A DNA stretch of 64,000 nucleotides from Lytechinus pictus. Its lineage: Eukaryota. Where the stretch lies: NCBI RefSeq assembly GCF_037042905.1, contig NC_087245.1, positions 5,706,001 through 5,770,000 of the forward strand, in the 5' to 3' direction. The notes under the pieces are model-generated. The model made no database searches. It had not been told where the DNA came from and saw nothing but the letters and a program-made list of their open reading frames with translations. Both the position numbers and the translations under genes were made by a program. The stretch's first letter is position 1, and every line of letters starts with the position of its first letter. This document shows, one piece after another, positions 4,641 through 54,967 of this stretch.

Positions 4641-6874
4641 TAGTGTGCAATGCTTGTTCGTCCTCTTTAAACACCGGCGGTGTAGTTTTAACATTACTGT
4701 TTTTTTTTAAAGAGCACACAAACAATTCTTGTTGTGGCCGTATGCTCATGATTGACAACATTCCAAATATGAAGAACAGAAAGTGGTTGTAAACAAAGTC
4801 CTAGATCATTGTGAACACCAATCCAGTTAAATAAGTTTTTCTTTAATAAATATTAACAGTACAATGCACCAAAAATTACTATCAAAGCAAAGAGTCGTTG
4901 TAATTGTTCAGTTTTCCCTAGATTGAGAATTGCGATTAAGTAATTGCAGTAGACATGGTAGACATGGTAGAGCAAGGCATAGAGGATATTCCAACAAGTA
5001 AAGTCCAAGAAGCAATTCGGTGGTGTGCCTGTGAGAAGAGGTAGGCTAATCTCTTGTCACAGGCACACTGGTCTCATTTAGAGCTATATCGAGTAATGTA
5101 TACAGACAATATCCATGGTATTTTGGTAAAAAGCTATTTTTTCCATAAAACTTTAAAAATGGCCGTCATAATTGCAAATTTTGAATGGTCATCTGCAATG
5201 AAAATTCATTCACTAGACACTTTAGGTAATATTTTTTTCATAATTGATAATTTTTTTCCACAATGATACACAGGAAACCTATTTCCGACTCAACTTTTTC
5301 TGAACCGTCTGTAAAAAAAATGTAAAGATTATTATACTCCACTTTGTCTGTTTATACTTATATGAATCTCTCTCTTGCAGTGGGTTGAATATGTCACTTA
5401 CAAGACTATTTATTTGGTGCAACAGCTAGGTTCTGTCGACCATTGGAACGATATCCCTTTTCACGTCTATTTGTCAAAACTCATAGCTCTGCGTGCTCGC
5501 ATTTTATGTGTTAATTATAAAAAAAATACTTAAAATCCCTTTTTCATATTGGTTTATAAAAAATTTCGGCTCGCGCTTCGCGCGCACATTGATAATTAAA
5601 AATATTCATTAACACGCGCATGCCGTTCACAATTACAAAAGATGCTTCAAATGTCCCGTTTTCAGACCTGAATATATAGGCCCTATAAAAAGATCGCACT
5701 CTCACTAGGCCAATTTATTAATGAGATACACATCTTTTCCATGAATTCCTGCGAATAGTCCTAGATCGGAATATCAAATAATTTCATATAGCATGCCCTT
5801 CGAGCTTGCCTCATTGAAAAGGTGTGATGGATTTTTTGTTAAATTTCCCCCTTTTCAGATTAGAATATCAAAATTTCTCAGCTCGCGCTCGCATAATTTA
5901 TCTAGGAAGATACTTATCCTTTATCATGATTACGGAGTGAAATGTAGATACAGTTTTTTTTCAGCCCCTCCCTATTGGCGATTTTATGAAAACTTTAAAA
6001 TAAGTTTAATTACATGCAATAGAAAAGGGAAGGTGGGAACTTGACATCATGAGCCCACCTATATAACATGAAGGCGTACGTATAACTGTTTTCACAATGC
6101 TAAATTAAAATTCAATAACTTTAGTATTATCACATTATGCCATTTATAATGACACTGCGATTTTGAGCAGTAACATTTTATATTTTACTTCATTTATTTA
6201 CATAGATTTAACTATTTTTAGCCATCAGTGCGTTTCATGAAAGGACTTGTCTGACGTTTTACCCGACAAGGCATGTTTTATCTGACAGTTACCATAGTAA
6301 CAGTGCTTCTCAGCCAATCAAAATGAAAAAAGCTGTCAATTCTGACAGCTTGTCGGACGAAAATGTTGTTGAAACGCTCCTCCTGAGTTTAATATATATG
6401 ATCGGTGTCAAGTGTTTACAGCATTGGTAATGATTAAACAGCATTTTAAAAGAAATATATAACCTCCGAGGGCGACATGGCCCTGGGAAGCGGGTGTGCG
6501 TGCTAGGGATGCGTGTATAGGAAGCACGGGTAGTACCCGCTGGAATTCTTATAGGTGCATGTGAAAAAACGAACAACAAAAATGATTTTAATTTTTAATT
6601 GAAACCCTCAATTTTTCCTTTTTTTTTTGCTTGTCAAATTTCTCAGGAGCAAAATTACCGTTTAATGCACCTTTTTTGGCTTGTCAAATCTACATCAGCT
6701 CCCCCAGTAAAAAAACCCTGGACCCTGTGTATCTTCAGTTTAATCTCCTAAGCTTGCCGCTCTTCGTGATTAACGTATACGTTTATCCATAATGATTATT
6801 CCAATTTTTGCGCAAATCAATTTTCACGACTCAAGCGGAACGATTTGTCGACAGTCTTCGTCACTCGCTCAGAG

Positions 6875-42099: not shown

Positions 42100-44670
42100 A
42101 GAGATAGGGGCACCCATAGATGAGGAGTGGGGTATTACATAATTATCTGAAAATACTTCCTACGTGAGAAGAAAATATCTTGAACCTGTAACATTAAAAA
42201 TATTGGTGCTCGAATTGCTGCGTGCTGATAGCAGCTCACTGTTCGTTCGTATATTGTTTAGGAAATCTGATAGTCACTTAGAATTCTTTGAGAGTTTAGA
42301 ACAAGATCTCGAGAAAGTATTTGCAAAGTCATGCAATGATAGTATAATTGAGGATTTTAACTGTTACATGTTAACTGATAATAATCTGTCAAATAAGTAA
42401 AAGAAAATATCTATGTATGGCCGTGCAGATGACACAGGTTATATCTGAACCCACGAGAGTTACACCTAACAGTCAATCACTTATTGATTTAATTTGCATT
42501 TCTGACTCACTTAGTAAAAGTGTCATAAAATCAGGAGTACAAATAACAGGTTTAAGTGATCACTATGTAATATTTCTTGTAATTAAAGGTAAATATCAAC
42601 CTCTTTCTCCAAAGACAAGCAAATTTCGCTCGTTCAAACATTTTGATTTTGACACATTTTAAGAAGATATGAGCAATTGACTGGAAAGAATTTCATTCAT
42701 CTGGTCAGGATGTAGAAAAAACATGGAGGTTGTTTTAAAAATACTCTGATGGAAATTTGTGATAGACATGCCCCATTCACATCAGTGCGTCTTAAGCAAG
42801 GAGTTGTACCATGGATTAATGAAGACTATCTGAATCTAGCACAAGAAAGGGATTACTGTCGAAAACAATTAAAAAAAGATCAAATTAATATCTTGGTGGC
42901 AAAAATTTAAGCATTGTCGAAATGGAGCAAACAATATTATTTGAATAAGCTTTTGAAAAAGAATTAATATCAGAATGAATTTCAAAACTGTGTTAATATT
43001 CAAAAGAATTGGAGAGTTATTTCAAGACTTATACCAAACAAAAATAAGAAAGAAAATAATGATATCAAACTTACAATGGGAAATGAACAGATACCTACCA
43101 AACAAATAGCCAATGTTTAAAACAAAGCCTTTAATGACGTAGGACTGAGATTACAGACTCCTTTGGATAATACATCAGTTGATGCATAAAGTAGTTTACA
43201 AACATTATCTTTACTCGAATGTGAATCTAAATTCAATGAAATAAAAAAAGATTATAGAATACTTGAATGAAAACAAACTTCTAACGAATTTCCAGTCAAG
43301 TTTTAGACTTTGCATTCTACTACTACATGTCTAACAAAAATTACATAATATTTTTTTGATAAAATGGATCAGCGGCGAATGAACTAAGGTATTTTCCTCG
43401 ATTTACGTAAATCGTTTGATGTTATACCATACAATTTCATTCTTGGAAAACTGAAGTATTGGAAATTAATGGTATCAAATGTGATTCAATGAAATCATAT
43501 TTAACAGACAGGTGACAGTTTGTCGTAATAAATAATTGTATTAGTGAAAGTGCAAAAATTAGATCAGGCGTCCAATAGGAATCCATATTGGGTCCATTGA
43601 TATTTTGCATTCTAAAATGTGTCTTTATGCAGATGATACTGCTCTGTTCTGTCATGATATGGAAGTTCAAAAACACATGACAAGTGATTTTGATGTTATC
43701 TGTATATGGCTCAACTTTAACGGTATGCATTTGCATCCAAAAAAGACAAAAGTCATGGCATTTAGTCATAGGAAAAGATTGAAAAATTATGCTTTAATGA
43801 TAAAATTTGGAAATGATTCCATAGAAAATGTAAATTTATGATCAAATACTTGGGTGTAACACTTGACTCTGGCATGACAATATCTCGCACGATAGGTTGT
43901 ATAAAGAGAATCAAACAATTCCTCCCGCCTAGGATTCTTAAGAATTTATACTTTGCCATGATTTTACCTTACATTCGATTATTGTTGTACATCTTGGGGA
44001 AGCTGTGCAAAAACCAAAAAATTAAAGTACAATAACTGCAGAATAAGTATGCCCGAATAGTTTTGAATAATGGACTATTTTACTCCCCAACATGAATTGT
44101 TGTCTACACTCAAATGGCAAACAGTGGAGGAAGGTATCAAATATCAATTTTGTGTTCTTGCTTTCAAAATACAAAACGATTTAGCCCCAGCCTATCTGGG
44201 ACCACTTATCTGCAAACGTATGATGTAACTTATAAAACACGATATTCCGAACAATGTCCCCTTTAAACACCCTGCCCTAGGACGAATTATAAAAGAAAAT
44301 CTTTTGAATATGTTGCTGCCGTCGTATTTTATTCTCTCTCTTGTGATATACAAAAATGCACGTCCCTCCATGCATTAAAAAACCCACTGTAAATCATTGA
44401 AATTCTGACGGTCATACATGTAATTGCACTGAATACCTTGATGTAAATGTAATGATTCCATGAGTAATTGTTGATTTCACTCTATATGTATTTAATGTAT
44501 TCGGTTAATACTTTATTATGTGTTACATAATTATATACATTGAATTGCTATGATTTTGAGTTATTTGTTAAACTGCAGGGCGCCTTAGTAAAGCAGTTTT
44601 GCCAAATGAACAGGCCTACCCTGCAGCATAAAATAAAGAAAACAATAAATGAATAAATAAATCAATAAAA
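42100..44670 (+). mobile_element. Decayed CR1/L2-group LINE ORF2 and 3' tail
   Basis: EDFNC, EPTRVT..SQSLIDLI, GLSDHY, PWIN, FLDLRKSFD, GSILGPL, LYADDTAL, IKYLGVTLD; tail GCAGGGCGCC...CCCTGC with (AATA)n. Confidence 0.9.
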
Positions 44671-44695
44671 GTTGGTTCGGATACAATATATATAT

Positions 44696-44733
<38 letters not shown>

Positions 44734-44737
<4 letters not shown>

Positions 44738-45088
44738 CAATGGTAGGCGTAGCTTTAATCAAGGTTCCCCAGAGCTATCTACCCTTTGGAAAAATTGGTG
44801 ATGCCGAAAAAATGTCTCTGACAGATTTTCGACACTATACCAATTACCACCCGACAAAGGAAATTATAATTGGTATAGTGTCGAAAATCTGTCTATCTGA
44901 CGGTCAATCGGATCGGGGTCGCCCTAGCCACTAACCCGTCTCTGTGGTCTAGTGGTTAAGGCACCGGCGTTCAAAGCTGGGGGCCCGGGTTCGATTCCCG
45001 GCAGAGACATTTTTTCGGCATCACCAATTTTTCCAAAGGGTAGATAGCTCTGGGGAACATTGATTTAAGCTACGCCTACCATTGTTCT
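44734..45088. repeat. Palindromic (foldback) element carrying a tRNA-like gene, embedded in (TA)n
   Basis: 87-bp arms 44734-44820 / 45002-45088 (2 mismatches); inner perfect 27-bp arms 44820-44846 / 44867-44893. Confidence 0.9.
44938..45009 (+). tRNA. tRNA-like gene, 72 nt class I cloverleaf, anticodon TCA (opal suppressor-like; functionality unknown)
   Basis: Acceptor GTCTCTG/CAGAGAC, D arm GTCT/AGGC, anticodon arm CCGGC/GCTGG with loop GT-TCA-AA, variable GGGC, T arm CCGGG-TTCGATT-CCCGG, followed by T6. Confidence 0.7.
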
Positions 45089-45154
45089 CTTCATCCATTT
45101 CTTTACAATATTTAAATAAAAGAGTTGCCAAAGCTGTTGTACATGTATAACTTT

Positions 45155-45218
<64 letters not shown>

Positions 45219-45221
<3 letters not shown>

Positions 45222-45757
45222 TGGCGTAACTACGGGGGGCATGGGGGCACGTGCCCCTCCCCCCTCCATCAGCTGGCAAAAATAAGGGTAAAAGAATAAA
45301 AAGAGGGAGAAAAAAAAGAAAAACGTAGTGGGGGATGAAGAAATTATTGTATATTATATTATACTATGTTATATTATTATATACTATGTTATAATATATT
45401 TATTACATTATATTATATTACTTAGGAAATATTTTTCATAAATTTATGAAACATAATTTTCTTAGGGCCTATGTGTTCATCATTCCCGGTGCTCGCATTG
45501 TCTGTTTAATTCCTGTTGTACTAAAACATCCCGTTTTCAAGTTAATATCCACCAAAATAGGCCTATATTTCCAGTGATCATTGTTTTATGTAGTGGCATA
45601 ACATTATGCTTCTTTTTCATGATTACCTAAAGTGATTGCCCCCTTTTAAGGTCTGCACTTACGTTCGCGTTAGTGGATTGGTGAGATATGTTAGCTCTTC
45701 ATAAATTCCTAAAAAACATTCTTAAAATGTCCCTTTTTCTAGTCTGAATATCGAAAA
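45219..45757 (-). mobile_element. Partial inverted copy of the right end of the 37541-40227 hAT family
   Basis: Starts CAGTGGCGTAACTACGGGGGG, the reverse complement of the 40227 end, and stays collinear with ~39730-40227. Confidence 0.85.
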
Positions 45758-54265: not shown

Positions 54266-54645
54266 GAATTGTTTGTAAGAGCAATTACAATCATGTATTT
54301 AGTTATTTCCTCTTTAAATATATTCATAGCATATAATGATTAAGAATATTCCAGAATGTCTCAGTAAAGCTTCTTTAGGCATGCCCATTTCTAAGGGACT
54401 TCAAAGTCGATGGTGATATGAATGAATGATATGAAAAGTTGCGCAATCAAGAAAATTATGCCTCTCTTAGACCTAACGAATTCACCAAATGAGTTTAAAT
54501 TCGATATCGCATCAAACTTCATCAAACTTTCAAGATATGTAACTAAGTAGATACCAAAGTAGAAGAATATCTTTTAATTGGCAAACTATATCTAAGTGGA
54601 GTTAGCAGCGCCCTCATTTGACAAGAATATTGCATAAACTTCCAA

Positions 54646-54967
54646 CGAGGCGTTGTGGCGTGCGCCTGTAATCCAAGCTGTTGGGAAATTACAAATTGAT
54701 GCAGAGGTTCGAGCCCTGGGGCCTGTTACGTTGCAGAAAGAGTTGCTTTTAAGCGCAAGTCAAAATATCAAGCGTAAGTCCCGAATGCGGGTGCTTCATT
54801 GGCTGAAAATCAAGTTGCGCAAGATTTTTTGAGTTGCGTTTGATTGCAACTCTTTCTGCAACGGGCCCCTGGTCACGTCTTTTTGATGGTGACGTTAAAG
54901 GTCGGTCCCAGACGTAAATAACCGTATCTGATTGATACGCGTCTGACAAAACTCAAATACACACACA
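54646..54967 (+). mobile_element. Candidate 7SL-derived SINE (~170 bp once the inserted MITE is removed)
   Basis: Head GGCGTTGTGGCGTGCGCCTGTAATCCAAGCT resembles the 7SL/Alu 5' domain; B-box-like GGTTCGAGCCC; (CA)n tail; TTCCAA on both flanks. Confidence 0.7.
54719..54868. mobile_element. Harbinger-type MITE inserted in the candidate SINE, CTG target duplication
   Basis: CTG|GGGCC...GTTGCAGAAAGAGTTGC...GCAACTCTTTCTGCAACGGGCCC|CTG. Confidence 0.8.

Follow-up and report, generated by a model that had tools for sequence, protein, structure and literature searches.

Structure of the Locus

The window, that is, the whole 64-kb stretch of DNA analyzed here, contains a 72-nt cloverleaf with a TCA anticodon, which was detected by ARAGORN and which also matches the Rfam family RF00005 (60.9 bits, E-value 9.8e-11) with no non-standard pairs. 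Its anticodon loop begins with a G at position 32 (G32), its discriminator base is an A (A73, at 45009), and a run of six Ts (T6) follows immediately (table 1). All these features, together with the flanking (TA)n, had been described in the initial annotation and were borne out by ARAGORN, Rfam, and Tandem Repeats Finder. Mirror alignment likewise recovered the inverted duplication that had been placed near 44856: its left arm (44734–44846) faces the forward copy across a 20-nt loop centered on 44856–44857 and retains, of the tRNA, only the 3′ acceptor strand and the discriminator. About 109 nt, corresponding to the leader described below and to most of the tRNA, are missing from this arm; its two parts are joined by a jump over this stretch, which is a closed domain in predicted folds (a single case), and the first of them stops ~22 nt before the usual short end. 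The forward arm continues to 45159, beyond the inverted repeat, which is thus not the boundary of the element.

Table 1. Features of the insertion, in window coordinates.
Feature	Position	Strand	Basis
(TA)n microsatellite, left part of the target site	44686..44734	.	Tandem Repeats Finder, period 2, 24.5 copies
Inverted 5′ arm, part 1: unit positions 246–332 (3′ acceptor strand, T6, 3′ domain)	44734..44820	-	85/87 nt identical to 45002–45088
Inverted 5′ arm, part 2: exact mirror of 44867–44892	44821..44846	-	Sequence comparison
Main copy: 5′-truncated unit, positions 92–404 of the 406-bp repeat	44848..45159	+	Alignment to array unit, 5 mismatches, 1 gap
Antisense leader	44882..44937	+	Predicted rod with tRNA
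Cloverleaf derived from tRNA-Glu, carrying A and B boxes; rewritten in its acceptor stem and anticodon arm	44938..45009	+	ARAGORN, Rfam, host tRNA comparison
Loop G32-T-T-C35-A-A-A38, readable as TCA anticodon; self-complementary at 32/35, giving a predicted two-unit 3-4-3 bulge-helix-bulge	44969..44975	+	Sequence, folding; determinants in PMC6614914
T6, Pol III terminator-like run directly 3′ of the discriminator	45010..45015	+	Sequence; kept in copies and older subfamily
3′ domain to short end; hammerhead-like relic where PLE pseudo-LTRs carry theirs; canonical core absent	45016..45111	+	By-eye comparison; strict core scan
Tail of ~50 nt, at one end of an insertion only	45112..45159	+	29/30 scorable inverted insertions
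Right part of the target site: (CA)n followed by (TA)n	45160..45218	.	Tandem Repeats Finder for (TA)n, 45171–45218

Other repeats lie in the window. Directly 3′ of the TA tract, at 45219–45270, starts a repeat rich in G/C runs, which we take to resemble the ends of small non-autonomous DNA transposons. On the other side, a broken reverse transcriptase-like 3′ fragment (43500–44390, +), with a YADD-type motif recognized by eye near 43626, ends before the TA tract and is probably an old LINE. The segment 46100–46960 is CpG-rich and dense in short palindromes, the surrounding window being AT-rich. A further repeat, found at about 54640–54740 (+) and at G000:C2:36238100-36243600 (near 5260–5380 of that locus), has a B-box-like motif after its start, which presumably resembles the 5′ Alu domain of 7SL RNA; it is possibly a 7SL-derived SINE, and Rfam gave no match to SRP RNA at the gathering threshold in the window.

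A Young Family of 406-bp Units

A 20-mer taken from the arm has 2,353 exact matches in the 812-Mb genome and the anticodon arm, with its anticodon left free, has 1,878, whereas the reversed controls of both searches gave 0. The family numbers about 1,900–2,400 copies, mostly located in TA microsatellites. Among the anticodon-arm matches, 99 of the first 100 listed read TCA (37 from one array); among the ARAGORN calls made on loci of the family, which overlap and are family-enriched, TCA accounts for 226/263.

Tandem copies define a head-to-tail, non-coding unit of 406 bp, with the tRNA at unit positions 182–253. The longest array consists of 44 modules at an exact spacing of 406 bp, with 30/43 units identical and TA tracts at both ends. 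Further long arrays, at G000:C28:803827-806860 and 888287-891320, have units identical or nearly so to that of an array on C2. Divergence is lower within an insertion than between insertions (median of 2 vs 5 mismatches for 17 pairs, one of which is mis-anchored), and rare variants are common to both units in 7/17 within-insertion pairs. The long identical arrays and this lower divergence, along with the ragged starts upstream of the tRNA described below, argue for a multimeric or circular template, and a circular template fits all three observations. Folded as a circle, the unit reaches −129.0, compared with −98.0 ± 6.6 for 40 shuffled sequences.

An older copy of the unit is also found in each repeat of a 4.2-kb segment present three times at G000:C1:2833000-2852000, near two intronless ORFs of 358 and 382 aa that look, by eye, like seven-transmembrane receptors. 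This 4.2-kb spacing (C1:2.84 Mb) was considered as a possible helper element and rejected, as it corresponds to a segmental triplication. Two metagenome pattern scans for the family returned 0 matches.

Insertions Have the Anatomy of Penelope-Like Elements

Insertions were surveyed in non-overlapping loci, in which BLAST defined 113 clusters; six of these, at a locus edge, were dropped, leaving 107 segments. Some insertions, including that of the window, were parsed as two clusters, and the 12 starts at position 1 are probably such splits. The 3′ ends of 86/107 segments fall at one of two points ~50 nt apart. A microsatellite flanks the 3′ side of 84/107 segments and the 5′ side of 64/107, which is in agreement with the early proposal of a mobile element targeting TA microsatellites. 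The 5′ ends are spread across the unit, at least 54/107 segments beginning upstream of the tRNA. They do not pile up near the tRNA start (8/107 within unit positions 178–194), and the accumulation at 219–220 expected for a linear excised unit is absent among the 107 segments, a result that is neutral for a circle. An inverted 5′ arm with varying breakpoints is present in 35/107 segments and, in 29/30 scorable inverted insertions (hand count; 5/35 are interrupted), one end is long and the opposite one short.

Partial tandems, an inverted 5′-truncated copy, and a one-sided tail have been described for insertions of Penelope-like elements (PLEs; PMC8557442). Because the insertions surveyed here share this anatomy, the palindrome of the window, initially taken as a property of the element itself, is a scar produced insertion by insertion and not part of the element. 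The genome is rich in PLE families with reverse transcriptase and GIY-YIG ORFs, which insert into the same TA tracts and likewise display the two-ended pattern. From their linker motifs, we take them to be Nematis-like and Neptune-like. With little doubt, the 406-bp repeat is a PLE-type non-autonomous retroelement, both young and abundant, and its retrotransposition into (TA)n by a PLE is likely.

The autonomous partner sharing its flanks that had been envisaged did not emerge from the PLEs examined: none of 96 PLE-protein loci (30 + 19 + 30 + 17, drawn from 430 and 687 candidates) has the 3′ end of the unit. Nor were Naiad-type PLEs located by a Pfam GIY-YIG search, which gave 16 matches; the three that were translated correspond to two C-terminal-type PLE pieces and one unrelated gene. 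PLE fragments lying beside copies were rejected as parts of the element, being separate insertions in shared TA tracts. A very young PLE family, found at G000:C1:29206000-29211500 and many other sites, encodes a 909-aa ORF (Pfam RVT_1) in dozens of equally scoring copies, and its 3′ end has no match to the 406-bp unit. At G000:C15:1879589-1918998, a frameshifted PLE ORF forms a tandem array of at least 12 units with a period of ~2.8 kb. Four PLE families of one type have in common a short inverted motif in their one-sided tails, which is absent from the 406-bp unit and may help to match passengers to helpers.

Origin and Conservation of the tRNA Module

The cloverleaf is identical to the host tRNA-Glu(TTC) at 48/72 nt, with a marked difference between its D-arm (15/18) and T-arm (21/22) regions on the one hand, and its acceptor stem (5/14) and anticodon arm (7/18) on the other. 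The Glu-like character of the D and T arms, already pointed out in the initial annotation, is thus confirmed by comparison with the host gene, from which both arms derive. A T-T-C-A run occupies positions 34–37 in the host Glu loop and 33–36 in the repeat tRNA, so that the TCA triplet is a one-base slip of the Glu loop. As for the host genes, the tRNA-Glu(TTC) array at G000:C16:2592760-2598801 has a spacing of ~385 bp and a G after the acceptor stem, and a tRNA-Lys array at G000:C4:9700711-9735957 contains many variant copies.

Of 86 ungapped copies of the family, 51 have an intact cloverleaf, 84 read TCA, and 84 carry at least five Ts after the tRNA; only four genome matches have another base at position 34. 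We also identified an older subfamily (54 matches, from which 30 loci were taken and 27 non-redundant rows used), whose flanks are ~75% alike to those of the young one. It has TCA in 22/27 rows and keeps the T6. The tRNAs of the two subfamilies differ at 10/72 sites, eight of which are in stems, and pairing is kept throughout, three pairs having changed on both sides. Pair-preserving changes in the acceptor and anticodon stems amount to three double and two single ones, while the D and T arms, which carry the A and B boxes, are unchanged. Eight random transitions would preserve pairs to this extent with a probability of 0.0014, or 0.009 if restricted to the acceptor and anticodon stems. Since all stem differences between the subfamilies keep pairs, which is improbable for random transitions, the cloverleaf fold is under selection. 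The stretch is therefore not an ordinary decayed SINE head, which had been set out as the observation that would undermine the first reading: TCA, stems, and T6 are kept across copies and in both subfamilies.

The same comparison says little about the anticodon. With flanks 75% alike, a triplet would stay the same in about 42% of cases (0.75 cubed), so that the constancy of TCA between subfamilies does not demonstrate selection on the anticodon itself. The loop as a whole keeps 6/7 bases, which, with only two subfamilies compared, is not significant by itself. Both subfamilies keep G32, which lies in a CpG; 20/27 of the matches lacking it have a G-to-A change. By comparison, base 32 is a pyrimidine in 31/32 distinct host tRNA sequences (Glu and Lys only) and a G in none.

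An Antisense Leader

In both subfamilies, the 52–56 nt located 5′ of the tRNA are complementary to its 3′ acceptor strand, T6, variable loop, and D and T arms, whereas the anticodon arm stays outside this pairing. The rod predicted between leader and tRNA has an energy of −66.4 kcal/mol, against −43.8 ± 3.5 (best −57.9) for 300 shuffled leaders. The older subfamily forms the same rod (−69.5 kcal/mol), again below all 300 shuffled leaders, and cognate leader-tRNA pairs are more stable than swapped ones, the differences being 1.1 and 4.2 kcal/mol. Predictions have the acceptor stem form when the leader is 10 nt or shorter (probability 0.78–1.0) and disappear when it is 20 nt or longer (0.00–0.07). 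The leader is thus predicted to mask the cloverleaf in both subfamilies. It could be the relic of an old inverted insertion.

These data also bear on the transcript. The T6 placed directly after the discriminator agrees with the tRNA-sized Pol III RNA that had been anticipated from the sequence, but this RNA would not be the sole product, since at least half of the segments start upstream of the tRNA; the copied RNA must for the same reason span units. We searched three long-insert RNA-seq runs from one study, using a quarter of each read, keeping in mind that such libraries lose tRNA-sized RNA. Family reads numbered 1,611, 1,076, and 797 of 12.9 million per run, in both orientations about equally, and read ends did not pile up inside the unit in any of the three runs. 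This pattern is as expected of passive read-through and counts against the splicing model presented below; retrozymes, for their part, have been reported as abundant RNAs. Head-to-tail joints were found in RNA reads (182 in one run), and as genomic tandems give the same joint, they do not distinguish circles from tandems.

A Possible Route to RNA Circles through tRNA Splicing

We tentatively propose, at somewhat less than an even chance for the whole chain of events, that the 406-bp repeat is copied by a PLE and that its tRNA module acts both as a Pol III promoter and as a tRNA-splicing substrate, from which one unit would be excised as an RNA circle. Pol III would start at the tRNA of one unit of a tandem, sometimes pass the first T6, and stop at the T6 of the next tRNA. 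The leader of the second unit would take up the 3′ half of the first tRNA and the D arm of the second, so that the 5′ half of the former and the 3′ half of the latter would make up a single tRNA body, interrupted by 406 nt between positions 37 and 38. G32 would pair with C35 of the next unit, providing the strong proximal pair and the 3-nt bulge used by TSEN. Cuts at both 37/38 sites would free exactly one unit, which RtcB would close in the manner of a tricRNA. A PLE reverse transcriptase/GIY-YIG protein would then nick (TA)n and copy round the circle, giving rise to tandem, truncated, and inverted insertions. TCA would be a by-product of the need for a C at position 35 in a slipped Glu loop. 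The model would therefore account for both the odd G32 and TCA without decoding. The more general statement, that this is a class of ribozyme-free retroelements whose unit poses as the intron of a tRNA assembled from two neighboring copies, with TSEN and RtcB making the circle and UCA plus G32 serving as the splice signal, is made with more hesitation still, as a possibility that we would not call probable.

Several observations are consistent with this scenario. In both subfamilies, the loops of two units can form the series G-C, U-U, U-U, C-G (G32:C35′ and C35:G32′) with 3-nt purine bulges (AAA or AGA), whereas the host Glu loop gives none. The intron-type conformer is favored over that containing the unit's own cloverleaf by 4.4–5.3 kcal/mol in 5/5 natural dimers, and the same contrast with shuffled leaders has a mean of −0.5 to +0.1 (12 each, best −3.1). 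Work in flies and human cells has shown that splicing requires a strong proximal pair but is little affected when this pair is exchanged for G-C, that it declines when the helix is paired throughout, and that the 3-nt bulge and a 6-nt distance do not vary (PMC6614914). Animal TSEN takes the tRNA body as its ruler and cleaves at 37/38 only (PMC10485636), which would explain selection on the acceptor stem. In human cells, Pol III commonly continues past terminators for several hundred bases (bioRxiv 10.1101/2025.10.17.683076).

Other observations count against it. The energy model gives the G32:C35′ pair a probability of 2e-5 and forcing it costs 5 kcal/mol; the unconstrained optimum of the dimer keeps both local anticodon hairpins and lies 2.8 kcal/mol below the intron-type form. 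Positions 2 and 3 of the helix are U-U pairs in the two-unit model, and unpairing these positions inhibits splicing of a fly reporter (PMC6614914). Moreover, RNase Z would cleave a fast-folding first cloverleaf ahead of the synthesis of the second unit. We also dropped hybrid acceptor pairing as evidence, as it occurs in 14/15 dimers and equally in 30/30 shuffled-leader controls. Altogether, folding modestly supports the hybrid tRNA and does not support the G32:C35′ pair itself.

Alternative Explanations

The strongest competitor of the splicing model dispenses with excision altogether: the family would be a passenger of PLEs, with a tRNA serving as an internal Pol III promoter and nothing else, and thus a PLE counterpart of Helenus and Cassandra. 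A linear read-through transcript, or a host multimeric RNA, would be copied, the leader would prevent processing, the loop would be neutral, and arrays would grow by template switching or unequal crossing over. Such a role agrees with the invariance of the A and B boxes between subfamilies and has parallels in Cassandra, which runs from a start in one small-RNA module to a stop in the following one, and in Helenus, to which every predicted Sup-CTA tRNA of some rust fungi can be traced (PMC10886601). It is also economical, TCA being explained by the one-base slip and no unobserved splicing step being required. However, a mere promoter could do without pairing in the acceptor and anticodon stems, where the three double and two single pair-preserving changes are found; the 5′ ends of insertions do not accumulate at the tRNA start, and G32 is left unexplained. 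We consider this explanation rather unlikely, though the best of the alternatives.

Processing of a short transcript or of an internal cloverleaf by RNase P and RNase Z, which would either reduce multimers to monomers or release a tRNA-sized decoy acting in trans, appears improbable. Covariation of the acceptor stem, the position of T6 directly after the discriminator, and the predicted formation of this stem behind a leader of up to 10 nt all suit it. With 20 nt or more of leader, however, the stem is predicted to be lost and internal copies should be hidden from these enzymes, and the 5′ ends of insertions do not cluster at the tRNA ends.

Still less credit can be given to the suggestion of an opal-suppressor-like tRNA made in the initial annotation, in which the 72-nt RNA would be matured, charged, and used to read UGA for a partner element or for the host. 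Its charge might be Trp, a guess that we make from A73, G1-C72, and C35-A36 in the light of tRNA identity rules. The frequency of intact cloverleaves and of TCA in the ungapped copies, the persistence of TCA in the older rows, and the scarcity of other bases at position 34 seem to speak for it, and some PLEs do carry an in-frame UGA, read as Sec (PMC8557442). However, young copies are alike everywhere, so that constancy within the family is no sign of selection; G32 is atypical, being absent from the host Glu and Lys sequences, and thousands of active suppressor genes should, we infer, be costly. In the PLEs located, none of them of the Naiad type, ORFs extend over as many as 810 and 1,026 aa uninterrupted by stops, and TGA-only breaks are sporadic. 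A UGA-containing PLE was accordingly rejected as a partner, no systematic in-frame TGA being present in the PLE families examined. No observation links the anticodon, a one-base slip of the Glu loop, to decoding.

Finally, a fold-back DNA transposon or MITE with terminal inverted repeats and a tRNA present by chance is evoked by the near-perfect palindrome of the window copy and the TA on both its sides, but is scarcely conceivable given that most copies have no inverted arm, that the extent of the arm varies, that 5′ ends are ragged, and that head-to-tail arrays reach 44 units.

Comparison with Known Systems

The family is reminiscent of animal non-LTR retrozymes, which are also made of non-coding tandem units (150–450 bp) occurring as dimers to long arrays, with a self-paired fold, a circle proposed to be closed by RtcB, and a proposed mobilization by PLEs (PMC7229834; bioRxiv 10.64898/2026.07.22.740005). 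The defining trait of retrozymes is that every unit contains a type I hammerhead, whereas the 406-bp unit has a whole tRNA, T6, and an antisense leader, and cutting would be performed by TSEN. A strict search for the hammerhead core was empty on both strands of the dimer, and the tRNA was the only Rfam match at the gathering threshold in the window; a hammerhead look-alike upstream of the tRNA was rejected, as it is not kept in the older subfamily. The family is thus a retrozyme-like PLE passenger that lacks the hammerhead.

Non-autonomous PLE derivatives such as MRC1 share with it microsatellite targets, including (TA)n, and multicopy head-to-tail insertions, but the 406-bp unit differs from them by having no ORF, a tail of ~50 instead of 30–40 nt, and a tRNA module (PMC8557442). 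Helenus, Ajax, and Cassandra (TRIMp3) are likewise non-autonomous, with an internal Pol III module derived from a small RNA, and Helenus yields predicted suppressor tRNAs; these are, however, LTR elements with PBS, PPT, and target duplications of 4–5 bp, moved by Gypsy/Copia (PMC10886601). In place of two LTRs, PBS/PPT, and short target-site duplications, the present family displays ragged 5′ ends, inversions, and head-to-tail arrays, and its ends are of the PLE type. The schistosome repeats Sm-alpha and Sj-alpha are also abundant and tRNA-like and inflate tRNA predictions, but they are SINE-like with an active hammerhead, and the available part of their description does not mention a conserved whole cloverleaf with T6 and an antisense leader (PMC2770079). 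A classical tRNA-derived SINE has a tRNA head at its 5′ end, where full-length copies start; here, the tRNA is internal to the unit and at least 54/107 segments start upstream of it.

With tricRNAs, the model has in common an insert predicted between positions 37 and 38, a strong proximal pair, a 3-nt bulge, and closure by RtcB (PMC6614914; PMC10485636). These circles come from introns of working tRNA genes, whereas the “intron” would here be a mobile unit, with exons from two copies. As to tRNA-Sec, it shares the UCA anticodon but is characterized by a 9/4 fold, a 6-bp D stem, a long variable arm, a length of 90–101 nt, and G73 (PMC5330540). The repeat tRNA, with its 72 nt, 7/5 fold, 4-bp D stem, 4-nt variable loop, A73, and thousands of copies, was rightly distinguished from it from the start. 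Our literature searches turned up neither a PLE passenger that bears a tRNA and lacks a ribozyme nor a transposon circularized by tRNA splicing; the family may be catalogued in Repbase or Dfam.

Significance

Thousands of tRNA-Sec or suppressor tRNA calls in such genomes should be taken with caution, as they are repeats. Even if the splicing step is wrong, the Pol III-module design of Helenus and Cassandra extends to PLE passengers. As a young family of ~2,000 copies, the 406-bp repeat would offer a chance to test the open proposal that PLEs copy RNA circles. If the model is true, a transposon would make its RNA circle through the tRNA-splicing pathway, and not by means of a ribozyme or back-splicing. 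Circular transposition intermediates would then have one more natural origin, and animal TSEN a client that is not a tRNA.
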